A DNA stretch of 8,385 nucleotides from Candidatus Hermodarchaeota archaeon (GTDB lineage Archaea; Asgardarchaeota; Hermodarchaeia; Hermodarchaeales; Hermodarchaeaceae): the NCBI GenBank assembly GCA_965372125.1, contig CBDVBC010000045.1, positions 1-8,385 of the forward strand. The letters run 5' to 3'. This document shows, piece by piece, positions 1 to 8,385 of this stretch. The notes under the pieces were generated by a model, which worked only from the letters and a program-made list of their open reading frames with translations, was not told the DNA's origin and searched no databases. The position numbers and the translations under genes were made by a program. Numbering within the stretch: position 1 is the first letter of the stretch; the number at the start of each line of letters is the position of its first letter.

Positions 1-781
1 GAAAACTTGGAATCATCTCCTTTTGTATCGCCGAGTCATCACTAACTGCACCAACTATCTCCCGGTCCTTAACTAGACCAAGTGCACGCATCAAAACAAC
101 AAGAGGAATCTTGCCTGGCACTGAAGGAAACGAAATACGGAAAGTGTGATCTGCACGACGCTCCATCGTAACAGGCGCTCGGAATCCCCTAGCAGTGGAA
201 AAGACTTTCGTCATATGCGTACACGAGCTGCTGCGTGAAGCTTCCTCGATCAGGATTCGATTTGGCGCCAAGTCTTCTTGAGTGACCAACACACGCTCAG
301 AGCCGTTAATCACAAAGTAGCCGCCCGGATCGTTAGGATCCTCACCAGCTTTAATCAGTTCCTCCGGAGACATATGAGAAAGTGAACAAAAAGCAGACTT
401 GAGCATAATCGGGAGTCGCCCAATATACACCTTGCTTGTATCCTTCGGATATTCCATCCCGGTTTTCTCATCTTTATCAATCGGGGTCATTTCAAGGTAA
501 ATCGGGGCTGAATAAGTCAGGTTTCGAATCCGCGCCTCCGCTGGTGTAATCTGGCGAATTGAGCCATCAGCCTCCCTAACTGAAGGGTCTTGAAGCTCGA
601 GCTTTCCTATTTTAACATAAAAATTCGGGATATCCGGTTCAATTTTCCCGACGTCGCTAACGATTTGTCGAATCCGCCGCTCTAAAAGATCGTTAAATGA
701 ATCGAGGTGCTGCCGGACCAAACCCTTCGAAGCAAAGAAGCCCTTCATTACTACCCAACGATCGTCTGAAGTGAGCGACAT
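1..781 (-). CDS. rpoB: DNA-directed RNA polymerase subunit B, N-terminal part (gene continues past the left edge)
   Basis: Absent from the ORF track because it is open at the window edge. Reverse complement from the ATG at 781-779 reads MSLTSDDRWVVMKGFFASKGLVRQHLDSFNDLLERRIRQIV...YIGRLPIMLKS...GEDPNDPGGYFVINGSERVLVTQEDLAPNRI, the conserved N-terminal region of archaeal RpoB / eukaryotic Rpb2. GGAGG (complement of 788-792) lies 6 nt upstream of the ATG. Confidence 0.9.
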   Translation of the reverse strand, partial: MSLTSDDRWVVMKGFFASKGLVRQHLDSFNDLLERRIRQIVSDVGKIEPDIPNFYVKIGKLELQDPSVREADGSIRQITPAEARIRNLTYSAPIYLEMTPIDKDEKTGMEYPKDTSKVYIGRLPIMLKSAFCSLSHMSPEELIKAGEDPNDPGGYFVINGSERVLVTQEDLAPNRILIEEASRSSSCTHMTKVFSTARGFRAPVTMERRADHTFRISFPSVPGKIPLVVLMRALGLVKDREIVGAVSDDSAIQKEMIPSF

Positions 782-1089
782 AACATTCCTCCAATGACGG
801 TAACATAATCCAATTGGACCAATACTCAGCGAGACAGTGTTAAGTGCCCCTTGAACAAGGCAGCGACAGCCCGCACGAGATGAAATGTCCTGACGATATC
901 GAATCGATGGAACGGTGTCTCACAAACATCTCCAGATTAGAAACATGCGGCGCCAACCAGCCGACGCTCAAGCGAACCCAAGCCAACCGTCTGCGGAGTT
1001 ACTCTGCCAATGTACAAAGCCCTTTTAAAGATTTTGAATCCTCGCGCGCAATATTCACACAAATGCGTCATCTGCAGAAGAAAAGAGAG

Positions 1090-1167
1090 TGGCGCCCGCG
1101 CCGGGATTCGAACCCGGGTCCTAGGAGTGACAGTCCCAGATGATAGACCTGGCTACACTACACGGGC
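1090..1167 (-). tRNA. tRNA-Asp (anticodon GTC), uninterrupted, CCA encoded
   Basis: Reverse complement is GCCCGTG TA GTGTAGCCAGGTCTATCAT C TGGGA CTGTCAC TCCTA GGAC CCGGG TTCGAAT CCCGG CGCGGGC G CCA. Acceptor stem is 7 bp with one G-U. Anticodon loop is CT-GTC-AC, the variable loop is 4 nt, and the T-loop is canonical. Confidence 0.93.
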
Positions 1168-1185
1168 TTGCATTGGGCTTGCATT
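1164..1185. repeat. Perfect tandem duplication of an 11-mer (GGGCTTGCATT x2) straddling the 5' end of tRNA-Asp
   Basis: 1164-1174 and 1175-1185 are identical. On the tRNA strand this reads AATGCAAGCCC AATGCAAGCCC-GTG..., so the first 4 nt of the tRNA plus 7 nt of leader are duplicated. Confidence 0.9.
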
Positions 1186-1195
1186 AGGTGTTTGG

Positions 1196-1203
1196 ATAAA
1201 AAG
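1196..1203 (-). promoter_or_regulatory. Putative TATA box for tRNA-Asp
   Basis: Minus-strand CTTTTTAT lies about 29-36 nt upstream of the tRNA 5' end (1167). The spacing is typical for an archaeal TATA box. Confidence 0.4.
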
Positions 1204-1265
1204 TTTTCTCTGTGATTGTCCACGAGCAACCCACTGACCACCCTTAACTTGTTAGAGAAAATTAG

Positions 1266-1421
1266 TGGTCCCGGCGCCCGGATTTGAACCAGGTTCTGGG
1301 TCCTTGGGCATTCCAAGGGCTAACCATCTGGTTTCTGACTGACACCTCGTCACTGCCCAGAGGGCTCGGGGTGCGGAGATAGCCTACAGCCAGACGCTCA
1401 ACCGGACTAAGCTACGCCGGG
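1266..1421 (-). tRNA. tRNA-Tyr (anticodon GTA), 156 nt gene with about 79 nt of intervening sequence (two insertions), CCA encoded
   Basis: Reverse complement is CCCGGCG TA GCTT AGTCCGGTT GAGC G TCTGG CTGTAG [51 nt, 1383-1333] A CCAGA [33 nt, 1326-1294, where only 5 are needed] CCTGG TTCAAAT CCGGG CGCCGGG A CCA. The acceptor stem is a perfect 7 bp. Removing 51 + 28 nt leaves a standard 77-nt tRNA including CCA. Confidence 0.85.
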
Positions 1422-1445
1422 TGTGTAGTTTTCGTTGGTGCATTC

Positions 1446-1453
1446 CTTATAAG
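1446..1453 (-). promoter_or_regulatory. Putative TATA box for tRNA-Tyr
   Basis: Minus-strand TCTTATAAGG has its TTATAA core at 1447-1452, 26-31 nt upstream of the tRNA 5' end (1421). It sits between the hycI stop codon and the tRNA. Confidence 0.45.
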
Positions 1454-1480
1454 ATTTTTCGAAGAGTTCGATGTTGGTTA

Positions 1481-1957
1481 CTAATCCAACATTGTGATTG
1501 CCGTAATGATTTGTTCGGCGGCATCACGCACAGGAGGTGAGATGGGTTTCGTGAATTCAACGGTGAGTGGTTGTATTCCAAGGACGAGAACGGCTGTTTC
1601 GATTTGGTTGGTGAGGTATTCGATGAAAAAGGTGAGAGGGAGTTGATGGGTGGAAAAGGCGACGCCTCCAATATTGTCCTTATCTATTAGGCGGATGGTG
1701 CCAGGGGGTTCGTTCATCAGAGCAGCGTCAACAATTAGAGTGAGAGAGGGTTTCGTGTCGCAGAGATGACTGATGAAGTTTTCAGGTACGGTGCTAGCGT
1801 TAACGAGTTCTACATTGTCAGGAACTCGGTTTTGGAGCTGCTTTACGATGTAGGGACCAACCCCGTCATCGGCCTTTAGATCGTTGCCGACGCCTAGAAT
1901 GGTGGTTCGTGATGAATTTCTGAGCGCTGCCGTTAAGTGTTGTCGCCAAGACTCCAT
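1481..1957 (-). CDS. hycI: Hydrogenase maturation endopeptidase, HycI/HybD family
   Basis: 158 aa. Motifs are ILGVGNDLKADDGVG, LIVDAA, PGTIRLID, STHQLPL and VLGIQP. These are colinear with E. coli HycI (CVGNSMMGDDGAG / LLIVDA / PGEIRIID / TTHNMPL / FLGIQP, from memory), and the Asp/Asp/His metal ligand positions are present. ATG start. Confidence 0.88.
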   Translation of the reverse strand: MESWRQHLTAALRNSSRTTILGVGNDLKADDGVGPYIVKQLQNRVPDNVELVNASTVPENFISHLCDTKPSLTLIVDAALMNEPPGTIRLIDKDNIGGVAFSTHQLPLTFFIEYLTNQIETAVLVLGIQPLTVEFTKPISPPVRDAAEQIITAITMLD

Positions 1958-1970
1958 TTAGTGAGAAGAA

Positions 1971-1990
1971 TTTATAATAGAGTGATAAAG
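1971..1990. promoter_or_regulatory. Putative divergent promoter region between hycI and endA
   Basis: The 71-bp intergenic spacer contains TTTATAAT (1971-1978), about 50 nt upstream of the endA GTG. It also contains minus-strand CTTTATCAC (1982-1990), about 27 nt upstream of the hycI ATG, which is compatible with a leaderless hycI mRNA. Confidence 0.35.
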
Positions 1991-2028
1991 GTTGCTATCA
2001 CTGGTAGCATAAACTCTTCGTTGAAGGG

Positions 2029-2646
2029 GTGAACCGATTGGCAGATGAGCAGCCGCCAGAAGAAGTTTCTCAAGATGAAATTCAGGAAGGGACGCGCCCT
2101 CAGCTCCCGGAGGAACCTATACCCGCAAAGCTCTCCAGAGGACGCGTTGTTGTGAAGGGGGAGAAGGCGCGTGTTCTATACGAAGCTGGACACTTTGGTA
2201 CCTTGAGAAGTGAGGTGGAACTCGCCTTGGAGCCTGAGGAAGCCCTCCTACTTATTCGACGAAAGCGAATCCAGGTTCACGACCGGAAAGGAGCAGAACT
2301 AGATTTTTCGGCCTTGCTTCAGATATTCTCCAAACGTCATCCTAGATTATGGACACAATATCTGGTTTACAGTGACCTTAGGAGCAGAGGTTATGTTGTT
2401 CGAACAGGCTATGGGAAAGGACTCTGGTTTCGTGTTTATCCCCGTGGAGCCAGACTAAATGAGGTTACAGCGAAGTACTTTGTTTGTGCCATATCGGAGG
2501 GTTCGCCACTGAAAGTAGCAGAACTAGATAAGCTTAGTCGACTAGCACTAAGGAACCGGAAGAAGCTAATGTTGGCTGTGTTGGATCGACAAGGCGAGAC
2601 AACATATTATTTAGTTTCACCCGCTGACATTACAGCGGATAAGTGA
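2029..2646 (+). CDS. endA: tRNA-splicing endonuclease family protein lacking the catalytic His, probably the structural (beta-type) subunit of a heteromeric enzyme
   Basis: 205 aa. The C-terminal half, YLVYSDLRSRGYVVRTGYGKGLWFRVYPRGARLNEVTAKYFV...LALRNRKKLMLAVLD..G...YY, aligns with M. jannaschii EndA ([42 protein letters not shown]...AHSVRKKLLIAIVD, from memory). Tyr (Y137) and Lys (K178/179) are kept, but the His position is Thr147 (codon 2467-2469). GTG start. The first 35 aa or so form an acidic, Pro-rich extension. Confidence 0.85.
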   Translation: MNRLADEQPPEEVSQDEIQEGTRPQLPEEPIPAKLSRGRVVVKGEKARVLYEAGHFGTLRSEVELALEPEEALLLIRRKRIQVHDRKGAELDFSALLQIFSKRHPRLWTQYLVYSDLRSRGYVVRTGYGKGLWFRVYPRGARLNEVTAKYFVCAISEGSPLKVAELDKLSRLALRNRKKLMLAVLDRQGETTYYLVSPADITADK

Positions 2647-2657
2647 AGAAAGAGGTG

Positions 2658-2784
2658 TGGCGGGCCCGCCGGGAAATCCGGTGCACACGATTTGTGTGGC
2701 ACGTTCGAACCCGGGATTACTGGCTTAGGAGGCCAGCGCCTTCTTCGGGATATCAGTGAACCAATCCGACTTGGCCACGGGCCC
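2658..2784 (-). tRNA. tRNA-Arg (anticodon CCT), 127 nt gene with insertions in the D-loop (about 21 nt) and T-loop (about 29 nt), CCA encoded
   Basis: Reverse complement is GGGCCCG TG GCCAAGTCGGA[TTGGTTCACTGATATCCCGAA]GAAGGC G CTGGC CTCCTAA GCCAG TAATC CCGGG TTCGAA[CGTGCCACACAAATCGTGTGCACCGGATT]T CCCGG CGGGCCC G CCA. The acceptor, anticodon and T stems are all perfect. The D region is 38 nt and the T-loop region 36 nt, against the normal 17 and 7. Confidence 0.8.
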
Positions 2785-2833
2785 TGAAGATGATTGTCTT
2801 TGGCTAGAGGAAATAACTATTTCCGTATTTCGC

Positions 2834-3523
2834 TTACCTTGTCAGGCGTTTGATATCTGAGTCTCTGCCAACGTATACAAAGTCCGCTTGGGAGGGGAAC
2901 AGACCTGTTTCAAGGACGCCGGGAATTGATATCAGGTGTCTATCCAATTGTGTAATGTTAGTAATTTCAGAGAATGCGACATCCAAGATGAAGTTGCCAT
3001 TATCGGTGATTACAGGCCCGGCTTTGCGTTGTCCCTGCCGAACTTTGGGTGTTCCTCCAAGTTGTTGAATCCGCTTCAAGGCGAGTGACAGAGCAGGTGG
3101 TATTACCTCAACTGGTACTGGCATTTTAACGCCTAACTTCGACACGAGTTTTCTTTGATCTACAATTATGACGAGTTCCTGAGCAGCTTCAGCAAGAATT
3201 TTTTCTCGCAAGAGAGCAGCGCCTCCCCCCTTGATTAAAGCGAGAGTATGATCCACTTCATCTGCCCCATCAATAGCTAGCGGGAGTGTTGAAATACTCG
3301 TGAGACATTCCACGCTGAAGCCTGCAGCCCGAAGACGATGACCAGTTGCAAATGAACTTGGAACTGTAGTGACCGACATTTTCTCAGCAGCCACTTTCTC
3401 CGTAAGCAGGTCAATGAAGATATCCACCGTTGAACCCGTACCAACACCAAGCATCATACCATCAGTAATATGAGCTAATGCCGCTTCAGCGGCCCTTCGC
3501 TTCTGATCCTTCGCAGTCAACAA
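2834..3523 (-). CDS. rpiA: Ribose-5-phosphate isomerase A
   Basis: 229 aa with the RpiA signatures KRRAAEAALAHITDGMMLGVGTGSTV, DGADEVD and IKGGGAALLREKI. The TTG start (3523-3521) is forced, because the first in-frame ATG would remove the conserved N-terminal segment. GGTGA lies about 10 nt upstream. Confidence 0.92.
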   Translation of the reverse strand: MLTAKDQKRRAAEAALAHITDGMMLGVGTGSTVDIFIDLLTEKVAAEKMSVTTVPSSFATGHRLRAAGFSVECLTSISTLPLAIDGADEVDHTLALIKGGGAALLREKILAEAAQELVIIVDQRKLVSKLGVKMPVPVEVIPPALSLALKRIQQLGGTPKVRQGQRKAGPVITDNGNFILDVAFSEITNITQLDRHLISIPGVLETGLFPSQADFVYVGRDSDIKRLTR

Positions 3524-3593
3524 AGTTCACCCTCACCCTTTCAAGTCTCCTAGATACTTAATATTACTTGCCGAGGAATCAGAAATGTAAAAA

Positions 3594-3670
3594 TGGAGCC
3601 TCGGGCGGGATTTGAACCCGCGACCCTCGCCTTACCAAGGCGATGCGCTACCGAGCTATGCCACCGAGGC
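3594..3670 (-). tRNA. tRNA-Thr (anticodon GGT), uninterrupted, CCA encoded
   Basis: Reverse complement is GCCTCGG TG GCATAGCTCGGTAGCGC A TCGCC TTGGTAA GGCGA GGGTC GCGGG TTCAAAT CCCGC CCGAGGC T CCA (77 nt). Confidence 0.93.
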
Positions 3671-3686
3671 TTTTACATTGAGGAGG

Positions 3687-3833
3687 TGCCGAGGGCGGGC
3701 TTTTCGCGGAACATTACTGTTCAGTTTCGAACCCGCGATCTCCAGATGGCTCCGGCGCCAGGTTCAAATAATATCTGACCCTGGGGCAACGCCCTATGAG
3801 TCTGGCGCTCGAACCAGGCTAAGCTACCTCGGC
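3687..3833 (-). tRNA. tRNA with CAT anticodon (elongator Met or Ile2), 147 nt gene with a canonical 37/38 intron (47 nt) and a T-loop insertion (about 25 nt), no encoded CCA
   Basis: Reverse complement is GCCGAGG TA GCTTAGCCTGGTTCGAGC G CCAGA CTCATA[47 nt, 3794-3748]A TCTGG AGATC GCGGG TTCGAA[ACTGAACAGTAATGTTCCGCGAAAA]G CCCGC CCTCGGC A, followed by CCT. A G1:C72 pair and a non-GGG/CCC anticodon stem argue against an initiator. Only 16 nt separate it from tRNA-Thr(GGT), so the two are probably co-transcribed. Confidence 0.8.
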
Positions 3834-3854
3834 GTTCCATAATCTTGGTTCGTT

Positions 3855-3864
3855 CCTTTTAATT
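3855..3864 (-). promoter_or_regulatory. Putative TATA box for the tRNA-CAT / tRNA-Thr(GGT) pair
   Basis: Minus-strand AATTAAAAGG lies 24-31 nt upstream of the tRNA 5' end at 3833. Confidence 0.4.
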
Positions 3865-3983
3865 CTTATTCTCAGGTCTACCCGTCACTTTCGATGCTCG
3901 AAGCAGTTTTAAGTAGCGACAGGAGTTTGGCTCTTTAACCAATGCGGGGGCCCTCCAAGGGTCAGCGACCGCAAGACAAGGCG

Positions 3984-4082
3984 GCGGGGGTTTCTAAGAC
4001 CTCAAAGCCAAGCCTGGTCAAAGGCGCAGGACTTAAGATCCTGTCTCGTAGGAGTTCCCGGGTTCGAAGCCCGGCCCCCGCA
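3984..4082 (+). tRNA. tRNA-Leu (anticodon TAA), class II, with a 14-nt insertion after position 9, no encoded CCA
   Basis: GCGGGGG TT [TCTAAGACCTCAAA] GCC AAGCCTGGTCAAA GGC G CAGGA CTTAAGA TCCTG TCTCGTAGGAGTTC CCGGG TTCGAAG CCCGG CCCCCGC A, followed by CCT. This gives 85 nt after removing the insertion. A second copy of the 5' acceptor strand GCGGGGG lies 40 nt upstream (3944-3950), so the true 5' end is ambiguous. Confidence 0.8.
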
Positions 4083-4158
4083 CCTTTCTTAACTTTTAGA
4101 GAATCAGCATTCTAGTTGCATAGATTTAGAGATGAGTGTATTCGATTAGAAGGGGATG

Positions 4159-4264
4159 TGGAGCCTCGGGCGGGGATTGAACCCGCGACCAGCAGCTTAC
4201 AAGGCTCAACGAAACCGGTTCAGTTTCCGGAAACTCTGTCACTCTACCACTGAGCTACCGAGGC
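4159..4264 (-). tRNA. tRNA-Thr (anticodon TGT), 31-nt insertion inside the 5' strand of the anticodon stem, CCA encoded
   Basis: Reverse complement is GCCTCGG TA GCTC AGTGGTA GAGT G ACAG[AGTTTCCGGAAACTGAACCGGTTTCGTTGAG, 4235-4205]C CTTGTAA GCTGC TGGTC GCGGG TTCAATC CCCGC CCGAGGC T CCA. The acceptor stem is identical to tRNA-Thr(GGT). The splice position is ambiguous between 28/29 and 30/31 because of an AG repeat. Confidence 0.82.
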
Positions 4265-4376
4265 ACACTCACAGCTGAGGTAATACTCCTTTTTGACTTT
4301 TATGGCGGTTGTAGGAGCGCTGCACTTGACGGGCAACATTTTTCAATACCTCAGTAATTCATTCTTAGTATTCCTT

Positions 4377-4481
4377 GGGCTGGTGGTCTAGATTCTCAGA
4401 AGGATAACCTTCTGGCTGGATTGGTATGATACGTGGTTTGGGTCCATGTGACCCCGGGTTCAAATCCCGGCCGGCCCACCA
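4377..4481 (+). tRNA. tRNA-Pro (anticodon TGG), 28-nt insertion in the D-loop, CCA encoded
   Basis: GGGCTGG TG GTCTAG[ATTCTCAGAAGGATAACCTTCTGGCTGG, 4392-4419]ATTGGTATGAT A CGTGG TTTGGGT CCATG TGACC CCGGG TTCAAAT CCCGG CCGGCCC A CCA. The insertion contains a perfect 7-bp hairpin, CAGAAGG-ATAA-CCTTCTG. Confidence 0.82.
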
Positions 4482-4529
4482 ACTTTTTCCTTATTCCTCT
4501 TGATTCGGATATGCTGAATTACGAAACCG

Positions 4530-4537
4530 TTATATAT
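4530..4537 (+). promoter_or_regulatory. TATA box for the 5S rRNA gene
   Basis: TTATATAT is centred about 25 nt upstream of the first base of 5S helix I (about 4558). Confidence 0.55.
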
Positions 4538-4557
4538 CCAGGGTTGTTGATGTTGGT

Positions 4558-4677
4558 CGGACGCGGTCATAGGAACTGGGTCACACCCGGTCCCATCAGA
4601 CCCCGGAAGTTAAGCCGGTTTCGTCTGTCCGAGTACTGATGTCCGAGAGGCTTCGGAAAAGGGCCGAGCTGCGTCCA
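4558..4677 (+). rRNA. rrf: 5S ribosomal RNA, not linked to 16S/23S in this window
   Basis: The terminal helix pairs GGACGCGG with CTGCGTCC. The internal sequence ACACCCGGTCCCATCAGACCCCGGAAGTTAAGCC ... GAGTACTG matches the universal 5S loop C / helix III and loop E regions. Length is about 120 nt and the ends are uncertain by 2 nt either way. Confidence 0.9.
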
Positions 4678-4706
4678 TTTCTTATGCCTTTTTGAAAAGG
4701 TTTTTA
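4678..4706 (+). terminator. Oligo-T tracts downstream of 5S rRNA (archaeal-type terminator)
   Basis: There are three T runs, at 4678-4680, 4689-4693 (TTTTT) and 4701-4705 (TTTTT), directly after the 5S 3' end. Confidence 0.4.
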
Positions 4707-4760
4707 TTCGTTGTTGAAACCGTTCGGGCAATAGATGCAGCTATCTGGAGAACTAAACAA

Positions 4761-5861
4761 ATGCAAATTGGTACCGATTTTTCTTGGATATTTCAATTGA
4801 TATTCATGGTCCTATTCTTAGTGATGTATCTTTACGGAACGCGACTTCAGGTATTCATGATGACGCGGCAAGTTGAGGCTGCGGCTGGACAGCTGGAATC
4901 GCTTTCAAAGCAGGGCAAGCAGATTGCCTTTCGGGTGTTTAAGGAGCTTGGTGTAGCGGAGGAGGAAATCAAGGCCGCTGTGGAGGAGTTCATGGAGTTC
5001 TTCTTAATCGAGCCGGTTAGCATTGATCCTGCGGGCGTTCTTGGAAGGTTGGAACATCTATTAGATGTACGCTCACATAGATATGAGAAGCATATAGAGC
5101 GGGTTGCTCCAGATGCTGAGCCTGAGCAGGCTGCAAATGCGGAGAGCGTGCTCTCTGCAGCCATGGCTGTTTATTATGTTTTTAGAGTTGTTCGCCACTT
5201 TCTAATTCTTGGAAAGAAAACAAAGAGCCTTTACCTTATCATGCAAGTTCAGATGCAATTACCAATGATTATGCAGATGGCAAAAGCCTATTTCGACGCT
5301 ATCAAAGCCTTTGCTGATGGTAAACCTATTGGGGATGGCATGGGTCCTTTAGCCGTCGCGCATTTCGCTCGTGAACTAAAGGCCGGTAAATCCGAGGAGC
5401 TTGCTAAGCACACAGTATCCATATCTGCCAAGTTTGAAGAACGGACTGTGTTTATTGTACGTGCGAAGGGACATGGCTCACATGTTGGCAAGCCGGGTGA
5501 AGTTATTCGGAAGCTGGTTGATCGTCACAAAGGCAAAGTCGCCAGAATTATCACGGTCGATGCTGGCTTAAAGTTGGAAGGTGAAGACAGCGGACACGTT
5601 ATTGAAGGAGTTGGTGCGGCAATCGGTGACCCTGGACCTGAGAAATGGAAAATGGAAGACTCAGGGGTCAGATACGATATCCCGATCGACGCGATTGTGA
5701 TAAAAGAATCTCTCGAAGATGCACTTAGTCCGATGAAAAAATCCCTTGTCGACGCGGTTCCTAAGGTAATAGAACGGATAAAGAGCGCAATTCGGCTGCG
5801 AACAAAGAAAGGCGACACCATTATAATAGCAGGTATCGGAAACACCATGGGCATAGCCTAA
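4761..5861 (+). CDS. Conserved archaeal protein of unknown function, DUF1512-like, with an N-terminal transmembrane helix
   Basis: I prefer the ATG at 4761 (GGAG 10 nt upstream) to the tracked TTG at 4692, which lies inside the 5S terminator. The product is 366 aa. It starts with the hydrophobic helix FSWIFQLIFMVLFLVMYLYG, followed by a coiled/acidic region and a C-terminal block ITVDAGLKLEGE..G.V.EGVGAAIGDPG.EK...E......IP.DA.VIKES that I recall from family DUF1512 (from memory, not searched). Confidence 0.78.
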   Translation: MQIGTDFSWIFQLIFMVLFLVMYLYGTRLQVFMMTRQVEAAAGQLESLSKQGKQIAFRVFKELGVAEEEIKAAVEEFMEFFLIEPVSIDPAGVLGRLEHLLDVRSHRYEKHIERVAPDAEPEQAANAESVLSAAMAVYYVFRVVRHFLILGKKTKSLYLIMQVQMQLPMIMQMAKAYFDAIKAFADGKPIGDGMGPLAVAHFARELKAGKSEELAKHTVSISAKFEERTVFIVRAKGHGSHVGKPGEVIRKLVDRHKGKVARIITVDAGLKLEGEDSGHVIEGVGAAIGDPGPEKWKMEDSGVRYDIPIDAIVIKESLEDALSPMKKSLVDAVPKVIERIKSAIRLRTKKGDTIIIAGIGNTMGIA

Positions 5862-5911
5862 AGAACTGATGTCTTCACAAACTAAACATTCGGTCGACAT
5901 ATTCTGTCTCT

Positions 5912-6430
5912 TTGCAAAGCATCAATGGAGGCTATTCACTGCCAGGATTTCCATATGACTGGGTAGCAATAGGAGGCACCTTTGATAGGCTCCACAAAGG
6001 ACATAAAACTCTTTTACGTAGGGCATTCGAGCTTGGACGGAGCGTTCTCATCGGATTGACCACACACGCATTGATAAACCATAAACCTGACTGGCAGTTA
6101 ATTAATTCATACGAGAATCGGGCGGCAGAGTTGAGACAATGGTTGAACTCGGAAGGTTATGGAGGACGCTTCATAATCGAGCCATTGTGCGACTCCTATG
6201 GACCTGCAATAACTGATGAGAAGCTGCAACTCATAATTGTGAGTGAGGAAACCTACTCCCGAGCTAAAGAAATAAATGAGATTCGACGAAAACGAGGGCT
6301 TCCACTTTTGGACATCGCAGTACTGACAATGGTTTTAGCAGAAGATAAAACCTCTATATCTTCAACACGAATCCGTGCAGGGATTATTGATAGAGATGGT
6401 CGGGTCGAATATCGTGAGCGCCCTGCTTAG
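5912..6430 (+). CDS. coaD: Phosphopantetheine adenylyltransferase, archaeal type (cytidylyltransferase-fold, COG1019)
   Basis: 172 aa with the nucleotidyltransferase motifs GGTFDRLHKGH and ISSTRIR. The TTG start at 5912 is the only start codon upstream of the GGTFD motif in this frame. Confidence 0.85.
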   Translation: MQSINGGYSLPGFPYDWVAIGGTFDRLHKGHKTLLRRAFELGRSVLIGLTTHALINHKPDWQLINSYENRAAELRQWLNSEGYGGRFIIEPLCDSYGPAITDEKLQLIIVSEETYSRAKEINEIRRKRGLPLLDIAVLTMVLAEDKTSISSTRIRAGIIDRDGRVEYRERPA

Positions 6431-6800
6431 AAGCGGAAGCCTTTAAGAGTGTGCAATTCTTCCTTTCTTCTAGCGATGAAAGGATACTGCCAAAATACGA
6501 GGTCAGGTCTGAAGGATGGACACTGATGAAGACCTGAGCAAAATATTGGCGACACTGGAGCACGTTGAGGGCTATGCGGCATGTGACAGGTTCCTACACG
6601 ATCTACGGCGTAGCGCCAAGAGGTGAGTGTTTGGCCAACCCAGAATGTCCACAACTCAACGCTGGGTCGCGTCGAGTTCGCATGTCTCGGCACATCAAGA
6701 GAGGACCTGCCGGAGGATTGAAGGCGTTTGCCGACCAAGGACGGCGGGGAGTTAGTGTATCGAGGAACAGAGCAAGGCCGACCCACCACAACCTTCTATT
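6431..6800 (+). ncRNA. Candidate structured non-coding RNA of unassigned family (strand and ends tentative)
   Basis: The 405-nt gap between coaD and trm5 has no credible ORF and is visibly richer in G+C than its flanks. It carries many complementary segments: 6461-6467/6478-6484, 6489-6493/6546-6550 enclosing 6503-6510/6530-6537, 6571-6577/6608-6614, 6587-6594/6703-6709, 6615-6619/6631-6635, 6638-6643/6662-6667, 6563-6569/6655-6661, 6727-6733/6742-6748, and an end-to-end pairing of 6434-6443 with 6774-6780. The G-T wobbles fit only the + sense. Intact signatures of RNase P RNA or SRP RNA were not recognised. Confidence 0.35.
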
Positions 6801-6835
6801 ATCACTCAGATATCAGCTTGATGAAGTGACGCTAT

Positions 6836-7693
6836 TTGAAGAGACTTCGCTATAGATATCGTAGAACCTTCCATCAGTTTCTTCAAGAGCAGTTAGGGGA
6901 TAAGATTCCAGAGTCTCTACTGCCGCGCCGCTTACGTATCTACGGTCACGTAGCTGTTCTCTGGTTGAAGCCCGAAGCAGTTTCTCTTAAGGAAGTCATT
7001 GGCCTGAAAGTTCTTGAATACGATTCAAGAATACGCTCTGTGTTAAGACGCACTGAAGCGATTTCAGGGCCTTTTCGAAGGCCTGCCCTAGAATTAATTG
7101 CTGGGTCTAGCGAGACCGAAACGTCATTTTCGGAGAATGGGTGCACATTTCATATTGATCCAATGAAGGTTATGTTCTCTCTCGGCAACAAGGCTGAACG
7201 GGAGCGAATGAGCTTGCTAGGTACAGACGAACTAGTTGTAGATATGTTCGCAGGCATCGGACAATTCACTATCCCGATGGCGGTTCATGCTTCTCCTCGA
7301 TTGATTCATGCCATCGAATGGAACCCTGAGGCTTTCCACTATCTTGAGCGGAACATACACGAAAACCGGGTTGATGGTATCGTTACTCCCCATCAAGGAG
7401 ATACCGATATTATCGCAATCGAAGTATCTCAAGGTCAGGCTGATCGTGTACTAATGGGATTGGTTCAGGGAACTGAACGTTATCTAGAGAAGGGAATCAC
7501 CTGTTTGCGTCCAGGAGGCGTTCTTCACTTTCACGAAATATGTCCGCGCCCAGGGGCGATTGCGGCAGCAGTCAAGATTGTTGAACATGCCGCCCAGCAG
7601 ACGGATAGGCAGGTAAGAATGCTCGGCGGACGAATTATCAAGTCATATAGCCCGCTGAATGTTCATGTGGTTTTAGATGTACGAGTGGACTAG
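6836..7693 (+). CDS. trm5: tRNA (guanine37-N1)-methyltransferase, Trm5 family (short form without the N-terminal D1 domain)
   Basis: 285 aa. VVDMFAGIGQFTIPMAV (SAM motif), IEWNPEAFHYLERNIHENRV, ADRVLMG and NVHVVLDVRV are colinear with M. jannaschii Trm5 (VVDMFAGIGHLSLPIAV ... IADRILMG ... VWHVVLDLRV, from memory). The TTG start is forced by an in-frame TGA at 6827-6829, and the next in-frame ATG is more than 100 codons downstream. Confidence 0.88.
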   Translation: MKRLRYRYRRTFHQFLQEQLGDKIPESLLPRRLRIYGHVAVLWLKPEAVSLKEVIGLKVLEYDSRIRSVLRRTEAISGPFRRPALELIAGSSETETSFSENGCTFHIDPMKVMFSLGNKAERERMSLLGTDELVVDMFAGIGQFTIPMAVHASPRLIHAIEWNPEAFHYLERNIHENRVDGIVTPHQGDTDIIAIEVSQGQADRVLMGLVQGTERYLEKGITCLRPGGVLHFHEICPRPGAIAAAVKIVEHAAQQTDRQVRMLGGRIIKSYSPLNVHVVLDVRVD

Positions 7694-7821
7694 ATAATTA
7701 GCTGTCTACAGTTGGCGATAAATCTGTCATTTACAACAGTCTCCATCTTCGAGGCATTAAAAGGGCTGATAATGGTATTCTTTCATTTTTTCATTATCCT
7801 TCAATACAAAAAGACGAAATC

Positions 7822-7850
7822 ATAAAATAGTTCTAATATGTGTCATTAGA
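7822..7850 (+). promoter_or_regulatory. Putative TATA box plus a 7-bp inverted repeat immediately upstream of the Toprim gene
   Basis: ATAAAATA (7822-7829) is centred about 27 nt before the ATG at 7853, which implies a leaderless mRNA. TTCTAAT (7831-7837) and ATTAGAA (7844-7850) form a perfect inverted repeat between the TATA box and the start. Confidence 0.4.
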
Positions 7851-7852
7851 AT

Positions 7853-8272
7853 ATGTCAAGCACGCGGAATGCATTATCAGCAATGCAAGAATTACTCGAG
7901 GAGAAATTTAGAGATGGTGTTGCACTCCTAATAGAACTATCAAGGGAGGGAGTAGTGGTTATAGCGGAGGGACAGAAGGATATAACGTCCTTAAGGCGGT
8001 TAGGACTCACTGGACCAATTGTTCCTCTTGCAGGGCATAGTGTTATCACACTAGCAGATTTACTTGCTGGAGATAGTCAAGTTTTGATACTTTTCGACTT
8101 TGATACACGTGGTGAACAGCTTACTAAATTATTAACGTCACAATTACACGGAACGGGAACGAGAATACATCATGATTTTCGAAGAAAATTAAGGAAGGCA
8201 TTCAGTTGGCAATCCCGAGTAATCGAGGGATTAAGCCCACTGGATAGGGATTCAAGCACCACAAAGCTTTAA
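7853..8272 (+). CDS. Small Toprim-domain protein (COG1658-like, RNase M5 / small primase-like)
   Basis: 139 aa. VVVIAEGQKDITSLRRLGL supplies the conserved Toprim Glu, and VLILFDFDTRGEQL supplies the DxD motif. ATG start. Confidence 0.8.
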   Translation: MSSTRNALSAMQELLEEKFRDGVALLIELSREGVVVIAEGQKDITSLRRLGLTGPIVPLAGHSVITLADLLAGDSQVLILFDFDTRGEQLTKLLTSQLHGTGTRIHHDFRRKLRKAFSWQSRVIEGLSPLDRDSSTTKL

Positions 8273-8385
8273 TCAACCCCACTCATGTCTCATCTTGTAT
8301 CATACTTACATATCGTCAAGCTCACTTTGACGTCTTTAGTACAATTGGTATACCTATCCCAGATATGATTGTGGTGACGAAAACC

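Follow-up and report, generated by a model that had tools for sequence, protein, structure and literature searches.

A predicted three-hairpin box H/ACA guide RNA encoded between the PPAT and trm5 genes of Asgard archaea

The window analysed here is an 8,385-nucleotide stretch from a Candidatus Hermodarchaeota archaeon (GenBank assembly GCA_965372125.1, contig CBDVBC010000045.1, positions 1 to 8,385 of the forward strand), and our interest is in the spacer that separates a cytidylyltransferase-like PPAT gene (5912-6430) from a gene for a Trm5/Taw2-type methyltransferase (trm5, 6836-7693). Our analyses indicate that this spacer very probably encodes a box H/ACA guide RNA of ~318 nt, built of three hairpins and directing pseudouridylation of 23S rRNA, the modification itself being predicted. 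An earlier reading of the same DNA, made from the letters alone (the original prediction), had proposed that its + strand bears an unannotated gene for a structured RNA, and conservation, covariation and a promoter-like element all speak strongly for such a gene. The same reading had offered an undescribed kind of RNA as one option, whereas the RNA in fact fits the class of archaeal box H/ACA guide RNAs. The class is well known; what is new is a family, or member, of it in Asgard archaea, and none of the papers in the library that we searched describes H/ACA RNAs from this group.

Conservation and architecture of the spacer

The gene order DUF1512-PPAT-spacer-Trm5 recurs in 17 genome loci, and in these the spacer shows 72-87% nucleotide identity over window positions 6470-6789, a conservation at least equal to that of the flanking proteins. 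Fifteen further copies were added, 11 from metagenomes (located by a motif scan and filtered with an nhmmer profile) and four from contigs of metagenome-assembled genomes (MAGs); PPAT (as DUF1512-PPAT) and/or Trm5 neighbours were confirmed for all of them except L052 (labels of this form denote loci). The nhmmer scores lie at 250-370 bits in ~30 loci. The G+C content of the spacer, which the original prediction had called G+C-rich, is indeed raised, but only modestly (0.50-0.57 versus 0.42-0.46 in the flanks).

The structural evidence is comparative, not thermodynamic. As a whole, the spacer folds no better than its shuffles (z = -0.84 for the + strand and -0.57 for the - strand), and the impression of a helix density beyond chance did not hold. 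Covariation, which the original prediction had asked to be checked on homologous spacers, gave a very different picture. Of the 80 pairs that RNAalifold gave for 18 sequences, 20 carry compensatory changes. In a 75-pair model of three hairpins evaluated on 25 sequences, 94.1% of the positions concerned are paired, compared with 36-49% when the partners are slid, and 22 pairs have changed on both sides (5-10 in the slid controls); the covariation score of 0.219 contrasts with 0.05-0.08 for the slid partners and was reached by none of 500 shuffles. The same design is repeated three times: an invariant internal loop separates the lower stem from a covarying upper stem, and a kink-turn (K-turn) and an apical stem-loop follow. 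In each K-turn the non-bulged strand continues from GA into the canonical stem (C-stem), while the bulged strand leads from the C-stem through three nucleotides into GA; the tandem G-A/G-A pairs, the 3-nt bulge and the canonical stem occur in all three hairpins of all 25 sequences. Alignments of the homologues combine invariant pocket strands with covarying stems, and the linkers, the enclosing helices and the 3' tail are conserved as much as the hairpins (HP1 to HP3) themselves. The elements of the model, all on the + strand, are as follows.

6472..6789: predicted small RNA (sRNA) gene, ~318 nt, three-hairpin box H/ACA guide RNA, proposed from conservation and the structure model
6473..6487: conserved single-stranded 5' leader GCRAUGAARGGAYA, with invariant alignment columns G5 C6 A8 T9 G10 A11 G14 G15 A16 A18
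6488..6551: HP1; lower stem 6488-6493/6546-6551, upper stem 6503-6510/6530-6537
6494-6502 and 6538-6545: HP1 guide strands, 5' (..CGAGG) and 3' (GCAAAAUA)
6511-6512 and 6528-6529: G-A pairs of the HP1 K-turn (GA/GA in 25/25), with bulge 6525-6527 and C-stem/loop 6513-6524
6552..6554: ACA box 1, ACA in 25/25, 14 nt after the HP1 upper stem in 25/25
6563..6569: 5' strand of enclosing helix E2, pairing with 6655-6661 and enclosing HP2 and ACA box 2
6576..6650: HP2; lower stem 6576-6582/6645-6650, upper stem 6590-6599/6627-6636
6583-6589 and 6637-6644: HP2 guide strands, 5' (GUGACAG) and 3' (AACCCAGA)
6600-6601 and 6625-6626: G-A pairs of the HP2 K-turn (GA/GA in 25/25), with bulge 6622-6624 and apical stem-loop 6602-6621
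6651..6653: ACA box 2, ACA in 25/25, 14 nt after the HP2 upper stem in 25/25
6655..6661: 3' strand of E2, pairing with 6563-6569
6664..6679: 5' strands of enclosing helices E3a (6664-6670) and E3b (6676-6679), pairing with 6778-6784 and 6770-6773
6685..6765: HP3; lower stem 6685-6690/6760-6765, upper stem 6706-6712/6742-6748
6691-6705 and 6749-6759: HP3 pocket strands, 5' (..CAAGAGAGGA) and 3' (GAGUUAGUGUA)
6713-6714 and 6740-6741: G-A pairs of the HP3 K-turn (GA/GA in 25/25), with bulge 6737-6739 and apical part 6715-6736
6767..6769: ANA box 3, reading ACA in the window; 16 nt separate it from the first base of the 3' arm that pairs with the target
6770..6789: 3' strands of E3b (6770-6773) and E3a (6778-6784) with the conserved tail ACCAC (6785-6789), delimited from the alignment and pair counts

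The minimum free energy of HP1 corresponds to z = -3.6 to -3.8, compensatory changes occur in both stems, the C-stem covaries as well, and the distance from the base of the upper stem to the distal G:A pair is 10 positions (nine in the L073 group), which is canonical. It corresponds to a 62-nt hairpin (6489-6550) already drawn in the original prediction, and the K-turn-like element suspected there (CUGA...UGAUGA) has proved to be a conserved K-turn. HP3 exhibits covariation in its lower and upper stems and a canonical K-turn distance of nine positions; together with the E3 helices its domain folds with z = -2.9. The box of HP3 varies, reading ACA in 13, AUA in three and GCA in nine of the 25 sequences. 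E3a and E3b are 97-98% paired with one covarying pair each and enclose HP3, and E2 (7 bp, 98.9% paired) has two pairs with changes on both sides. For the single-stranded 5' leader, searches of 6473-6486 for a pairing partner, a C/D-box partner or an rRNA complement found none.

Other helices drawn earlier fared less well. The pairing of CGTTGAG (6563-6569) with CTCAACG (6655-6661) is upheld by covariation, but as the plain helix E2 enclosing HP2 and not as the pseudoknot originally envisaged. A closing helix between 6434-6443 and 6774-6780 has to be abandoned: 6435-6449 is a conserved promoter-like element that precedes the RNA, and the partner of 6778-6784 is 6664-6670; likewise, the ACCCAG/CTGGGT hairpin dissolves into the 3' guide arm of HP2 (ACCCAG) and a part of the 6664-6670 helix (CTGGGT). 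The + strand as the RNA strand is supported by conserved G-U pairs other than the four G-T wobbles from which it had been deduced (6575/6610 and 6727-6729 with 6746-6748); the latter are no part of the supported structure. Two local pairings that we tried ourselves were rejected as well. GGAGC (6557-6561) with GYUCC (6590-6594) shows no covariation and is broken by single changes in L015 and L056, and a GUGGG/CCCAC pairing within 6627-6644 is likewise devoid of covariation.

Predicted targets in the 23S rRNA

All target positions given below are computed and follow the E. coli numbering (Ec). None of the related loci compared contains rRNA, and the tRNAs and the 5S rRNA of the window are not convincing guide targets. 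The first proxies for the large-subunit rRNA (LSU) were therefore a haloarchaeal rrn operon from a plasmid record and the operon of E. coli. To reach an Asgard LSU, the strand opposite to the haloarchaeal peptidyl-transferase region was translated over a stretch free of stops, and the product was searched in a protein collection. This search retrieved at least 98 protein clusters, spurious open reading frames (ORFs) that run antisense to archaeal 23S rRNA in its peptidyl-transferase region (L216-L220), and such clusters are a handy route to rRNA-bearing contigs. One member of the set comes from a contig of 11.5 kb that encodes an aRF1 with 90% identity to its Promethearchaeum syntrophicum counterpart, and the LSU of this contig can thus be regarded as Lokiarchaeial. 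It provides a strong test of the predicted targets, though one from another genome. A scan of a viral collection for the predicted target strings returned 64 matches, which are chance occurrences in coding DNA and not rRNA.

The pocket of HP1 predicts a target of the pattern 5'-UUUGC-UN-CCUCG. Its form UUGC-U-N-CCUCGAU (4 bp, the U, N and 7 bp) is found once in the haloarchaeal rrn operon, at Ec2496, where the LSU reads GGCUUGC[UA]CCUCGAUGUCGG; shuffled HP1 arms match anywhere in only 0.025% of trials. The Lokiarchaeial LSU reads GGCUUGC[UU]CCUCGAUGUCGG at this site, and Ec2496 is also the top HP1 site of an unbiased scan of the Lokiarchaeial locus, its score being reached by 5 of 200 shuffles. 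The predicted target of HP1 is thus U2496 in the peptidyl-transferase region. Ec2496 is equivalent to Psi2865 (Psi, pseudouridine) of the yeast 25S rRNA, which is guided by snR46 and conserved in human.

For HP3, the 5' arm was predicted to be complementary to (U)CCUCUCUUAA. The string CUCUCUUAA at Ec1920-1928 was predicted from this guide before any Asgard LSU had been seen, and it was then found in the Lokiarchaeial LSU, whereas haloarchaeal and methanogen LSUs have CCCUCUUAA in its place. At helix 69 (H69) the Lokiarchaeial LSU reads GAGUAAC[UAUAA]CUCUCUUAAGGUAGCC, the second part including the eukaryote-like CUCUCUUAA, and the consensus guide of the HP3 family could form 4 + 9 bp with it around the unpaired UAUAA. 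The window's own guide carries a C at 6696, which gives ~7 bp. Measured from the box, the first pairing base is 16 nt and the stem 18 nt away, and the distances to U1915 and U1917 come to 17 and 19 nt, respectively, values outside the n+15 rule. We predict that HP3 targets U1915 and U1917 of helix 69 in an atypical configuration with several unpaired nucleotides. U1915 is the top HP3 site of the unbiased scan of the Lokiarchaeial locus; the weight of this match lies in its location and its prior prediction, not in its score.

The target of HP2 is a more tentative proposal. Its pocket gives the pattern 5'-UGGGUU-UN-..., and the 3' arm AACCCA(G) is exactly complementary to the (C)UGGGUU that precedes U2586, with n+15 spacing, so that U2586 is our tentative candidate. 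Among the 25 homologues, four substitutions are unique to the window (6591, 6631, 6632 and 6635); all fall into the upper stem of HP2 and they break two of its pairs. HP2 may be relaxing in the lineage of the window, or an alternative pairing with GGAGC (6557-6561) may be used.

A few features of the rRNA itself were met along the way. U2555 of the A-loop was considered as a target of HP2, since it fits the haloarchaeal LSU if two base pairs of the upper stem (P2) open, but this candidate was dropped: the Lokiarchaeial LSU has an A instead of U at Ec2555 (CUGUACGCC). The same 23S rRNA (L218/L220, - strand of the locus) contains eukaryote-like strings near H69/H70 (CUCUCUUAAGGUAGCCAAAUG) and after the peptidyl-transferase centre (GGCUCUUCCUAUC).

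Assignment to the box H/ACA class and alternative readings

Archaeal box H/ACA RNAs are described as having one to three hairpins and an ANA box; 5-6 bp separate the pocket from a K-turn or K-loop, with 9-10 positions between the base of P2 and the distal G:A pair and 14-16 nt (n+15) between box and target (PMC2377435, PMC7991803, PMC7075261). Lower stem, pocket loop and upper stem are present in all three hairpins of the Asgard RNA, and the K-turns, which are predicted to bind L7Ae, are preserved throughout as described above. ANA boxes follow HP1 and HP2 in all 25 sequences and HP3 in those that do not have GCA; the 14-nt spacing of HP1 and HP2, invariant in the same 25, agrees with the 14-16-nt or n+15 rule, outside which HP3 falls. 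Bipartite complementarity amounts to 4 + 7 bp for HP1 (haloarchaeal and Asgard LSU) and 4 + 9 bp for HP3 (Asgard LSU), and for HP2 it is confined to 6-7 bp of the 3' arm.

Several known RNAs make useful comparisons. The multi-hairpin H/ACA RNA sR-h45 of Haloferax volcanii, also equipped with K-turns, has two stem-loops of interest here. SL1 guides, at n+15, the formation of Psi2605 (Ec U2586, which follows UGGGUU), and SL2, which is experimentally active, serves both Psi1940 and Psi1942 of helix 69 (Ec 1915/1917) from a single pocket; several nucleotides of the SL2 target stay unpaired, and the ACA lies at the atypical distances of 17 and 19. HP2 and HP3 would share candidate targets, 5'-to-3' order and spacings with SL1 and SL2, a likeness that concerns targets and spacing as described for sR-h45. 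Further parallels are the unusually long structured linker of sR-h45 and the long, bulged P2 of its SL1 (8 and 10 bases, base pair to distal G:A). The Asgard RNA differs by its extra 5' hairpin (HP1, Ec2496), by the extra helices enclosing HP2 and HP3 and by its length (~318 versus ~210 nt), and the 5' arm of HP2, in contrast to SL1, has no obvious complementarity. Three H/ACA motifs per RNA, every one of them combining an ANA box with a K-turn or K-loop, are known from the 23S rRNA guides Afu4 of A. fulgidus, Pf7/HgcG of P. furiosus and Pab40 of P. abyssi (PMC2377435). These are shorter and consist of simple tandem hairpins with a helix H2 of 5-6 bp; the Rfam Hgc models do not match the Asgard RNA, and the target sets differ as far as they have been reported. 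On the eukaryotic side, yeast snR46 (Psi2865) addresses the rRNA position predicted for HP1 (Ec2496), and yeast snR191 and human U19 address those predicted for HP3 (helix-69 Psi2258/2260, i.e. Ec1915/1917). All three are snoRNAs of the H/ACA type that have two hairpins, an H box and an ACA box but no K-turn and are encoded by separate genes; their likeness to the Asgard RNA is one of target positions.

The function that we propose follows the general scheme of archaeal H/ACA ribonucleoproteins (RNPs). A single ~318-nt RNA of three H/ACA modules would probably be transcribed from a BRE/TATA promoter of its own (BRE, transcription factor B recognition element). The K-turn in each upper stem would bind L7Ae, as is established for archaeal H/ACA RNPs, and the lower stem with its ACA/ANA box would be held by the PUA domain of the pseudouridine synthase Cbf5, whose partners are Nop10 and Gar1. 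Each strand of the internal loop would pair with the 23S rRNA, one on each flank of a uridine left unpaired, which would enter the active site of Cbf5 and be isomerized to pseudouridine. Transcription, the RNA ends, protein binding and actual pseudouridylation are in this case what we infer from conservation, structure and complementarity.

There are points that weigh against the assignment. The 5' arm of HP2 has no contiguous complementarity next to U2586, this site is not the top one for HP2 in the unbiased scan and the 7-mer alone finds a chance match in ~30% of trials; moreover, the upper stem of HP2, if fully paired, places the distal G:A pair at 12 positions instead of the usual 9-10. 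Nine of the 25 sequences have GCA in place of ANA as the box of HP3, and the complementarity score of this hairpin is unremarkable in the permissive scan, where 74 of 200 shuffles are as good. ACA2 and ANA3 sit in internal loops closed by extra helices, and the RNA, at ~318 nt and with its conserved 5' leader, is larger than the archaeal H/ACA RNAs described so far. No Rfam H/ACA family matches the spacer. Finally, the Asgard LSU used for the test is Lokiarchaeial, from another genome and another class than the Hermodarchaeota-like MAGs that bear the sRNA.

The alternative that survives best is a variant of our proposal and does not exclude it. The three H/ACA modules would be real, but the ~318-nt RNA would be only a precursor, with E2, E3 and the linkers as processing signals and single-hairpin sRNAs as the mature products. 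Most archaeal H/ACA sRNAs are, indeed, single hairpins (PMC7991803), the stem-loops of sR-h45 act independently and its linker is dispensable, and helices directly after ACA2 and ANA3 look awkward for binding by the PUA domain of Cbf5. We nevertheless consider processing of this kind unlikely, given that the linkers, enclosing helices and 3' tail are conserved like the hairpins and covary, which suggests a role in the mature RNA, that archaeal H/ACA RNAs with two and three hairpins are known as single molecules, and that neither a bulge-helix-bulge nor any other known processing motif was seen.

It is very unlikely, in our view, that the H/ACA likeness is partly coincidental and the locus specifies a K-turn-rich RNA with another role, be it an L7Ae-binding scaffold or a 5' leader regulating trm5/taw2. 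The RNA ends ~45 nt before the trm5 start with no strong oligo-T terminator, HP2 and HP3 depart from the canonical H/ACA geometry and box sequence, and the conserved 5' leader and the enclosing helices lack an explanation, all of which would suit such a role. Against it stand three independent modules in which a K-turn, an invariant pocket and an ACA at the canonical 14 nt are combined, and the pockets of HP1 and HP3, which match known pseudouridylation sites in archaeal and Asgard LSU, with one of the matching strings predicted beforehand. In addition, trm5 could have a promoter of its own in the A/T-rich element that separates it from the RNA.

The notion of a divergent RNase P or SRP RNA, a family assignment considered in the original prediction, is effectively refuted. 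The ~320-nt size, the housekeeping-like conservation and the K-turns (bound by L7Ae in RNase P) do resemble archaeal RNase P RNA, and there is some loose likeness of strings such as GAGGUGAG and ACAGAGCA. However, Rfam searches of the whole window (gathering threshold) and of 6350-6900 by itself (E<=10) gave only noise-level snoRNA fragments in the spacer, with no match of RNaseP_arch, RNaseP_nuc, RNaseP-T or Archaea_SRP even at the latter setting. The P4 pair of GGAAAGUCC (conserved region CR-I) and ACAGAA..GGCUUA (CR-V) and the SRP helix-8 motif are missing, and the topology is incompatible: three hairpins follow one another, the two ends are unpaired (no P1/P2 or helix 5) and there is no P4-type pseudoknot. 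A P4 built by eye from 6563-6569/6655-6661 with CR-I/CR-II/CR-V-like strings had been tried as well, and neither its topology nor its motifs fit.

A protein-coding gene, either the 120-aa ORF 6427-6789 (-) or a 96-aa ORF on the + strand, is equally refuted: no reading frame is open across the homologues, all six frames containing stops in relatives, and 1-2-nt indels occur inside conserved blocks of the alignment, so that the element is not coding. The substitutions in its helices are, moreover, compensatory, and the ORFs of the spacer have no Pfam match. The boundaries of the minus-strand ORF do coincide with the conserved block in the window, and ORFs of 47-71 aa have been called across the region in public MAGs, but the former view that the overlapping ORFs 6427-6789 (-), 6565-6855 (+) and 6603-6791 (-) are not genes stands. 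The 47-71-aa 'proteins' annotated over the sRNA gene in related MAGs (L213:2601-2744, L215:2090-2305) illustrate how the locus is treated at present; these gene calls are almost certainly spurious.

If the box H/ACA assignment is right, a function is given to a strongly conserved and unannotated Asgard locus that in public MAGs is covered by spurious small ORFs, and three or four specific pseudouridines are predicted in the functional core of the Asgard 23S rRNA. The segments addressed by the three pockets would all line the peptidyl-transferase centre and helix 69. Ec2496, a guided site conserved from yeast to human (yeast Psi2865, snR46), offers a handle on how Asgard rRNA modification compares with snoRNPs, and the helix-69 guide has its peculiar 17/19 spacing in common with the haloarchaeal guide. 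The covarying helices that hold ACA boxes in internal loops, the unexplained invariant 5' leader and the pockets directed to the peptidyl-transferase centre and helix 69 leave room for a bolder idea, which we regard as speculative and distinctly unlikely. A single 'locked' RNP with several Cbf5 copies might bind domains IV and V of the nascent 23S rRNA together as an assembly chaperone, like the essential eukaryotic H/ACA snoRNAs; the HP1 site (yeast Psi2865) would then be a guided modification shared by Asgard archaea and eukaryotes and predating the latter.

Gene context and neighbouring features

The sequence of the window is archaeal; its RNA genes include a 5S rRNA and several tRNAs, of which one contains an intron. 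The closest homologues of its Trm5, which starts with a TTG codon at 6836, are all from Asgard archaea, and the nearest genome loci belong to Hermodarchaeota MAGs (83% and 75% amino-acid identity). The ends of the sRNA, 6472 and 6789, were placed where conservation begins and stops in the alignment. Two elements on the + strand adjoin it.

6435..6449: BRE/TATA-like promoter element (GGAAGCC TTTAAGAG), ~30 nt upstream of the conserved start
6794..6803: T/A-rich element TTCTATTATC 3' of the RNA, an A/T-rich block in relatives with varying letters

The first of these lies just after the PPAT stop codon. Its core AAG..TTTA(A/T)GAG is kept in all 18 loci of the alignment while the adjoining spacer varies, and its position relative to 6472 fits the archaeal TATA box, expected at about -30/-23. 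This suggests a dedicated promoter of the putative sRNA gene. The second element is possibly a terminator of the sRNA and/or the TATA box of a near-leaderless trm5 mRNA.

Downstream of trm5, the relatives L212, L213 and L215 possess a gene for a class-Ib aminoacyl-tRNA synthetase (365 aa, PF00579, - strand) directly after it. This gene is absent 3' of trm5 in the window (7693-7853 compared), where a 139-aa Toprim-like ORF (7853-8272) follows after ~160 nt; the difference from the three relatives is a local rearrangement. Two tRNA matches deserve mention. The one at 4162-4264 (-) is 103 nt long and scores 47 bits in Rfam without being called by ARAGORN, and its length suggests an intron-containing archaeal tRNA. 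The other, at 4410-4478 (+), is borderline in Rfam (32 bits against a cutoff of 29) and is read by ARAGORN as a tRNA-Pro(UGG) of only 68 nt, so that this tRNA may be degenerate or atypical; a 5S rRNA gene that stands alone (4559-4677) follows shortly downstream.

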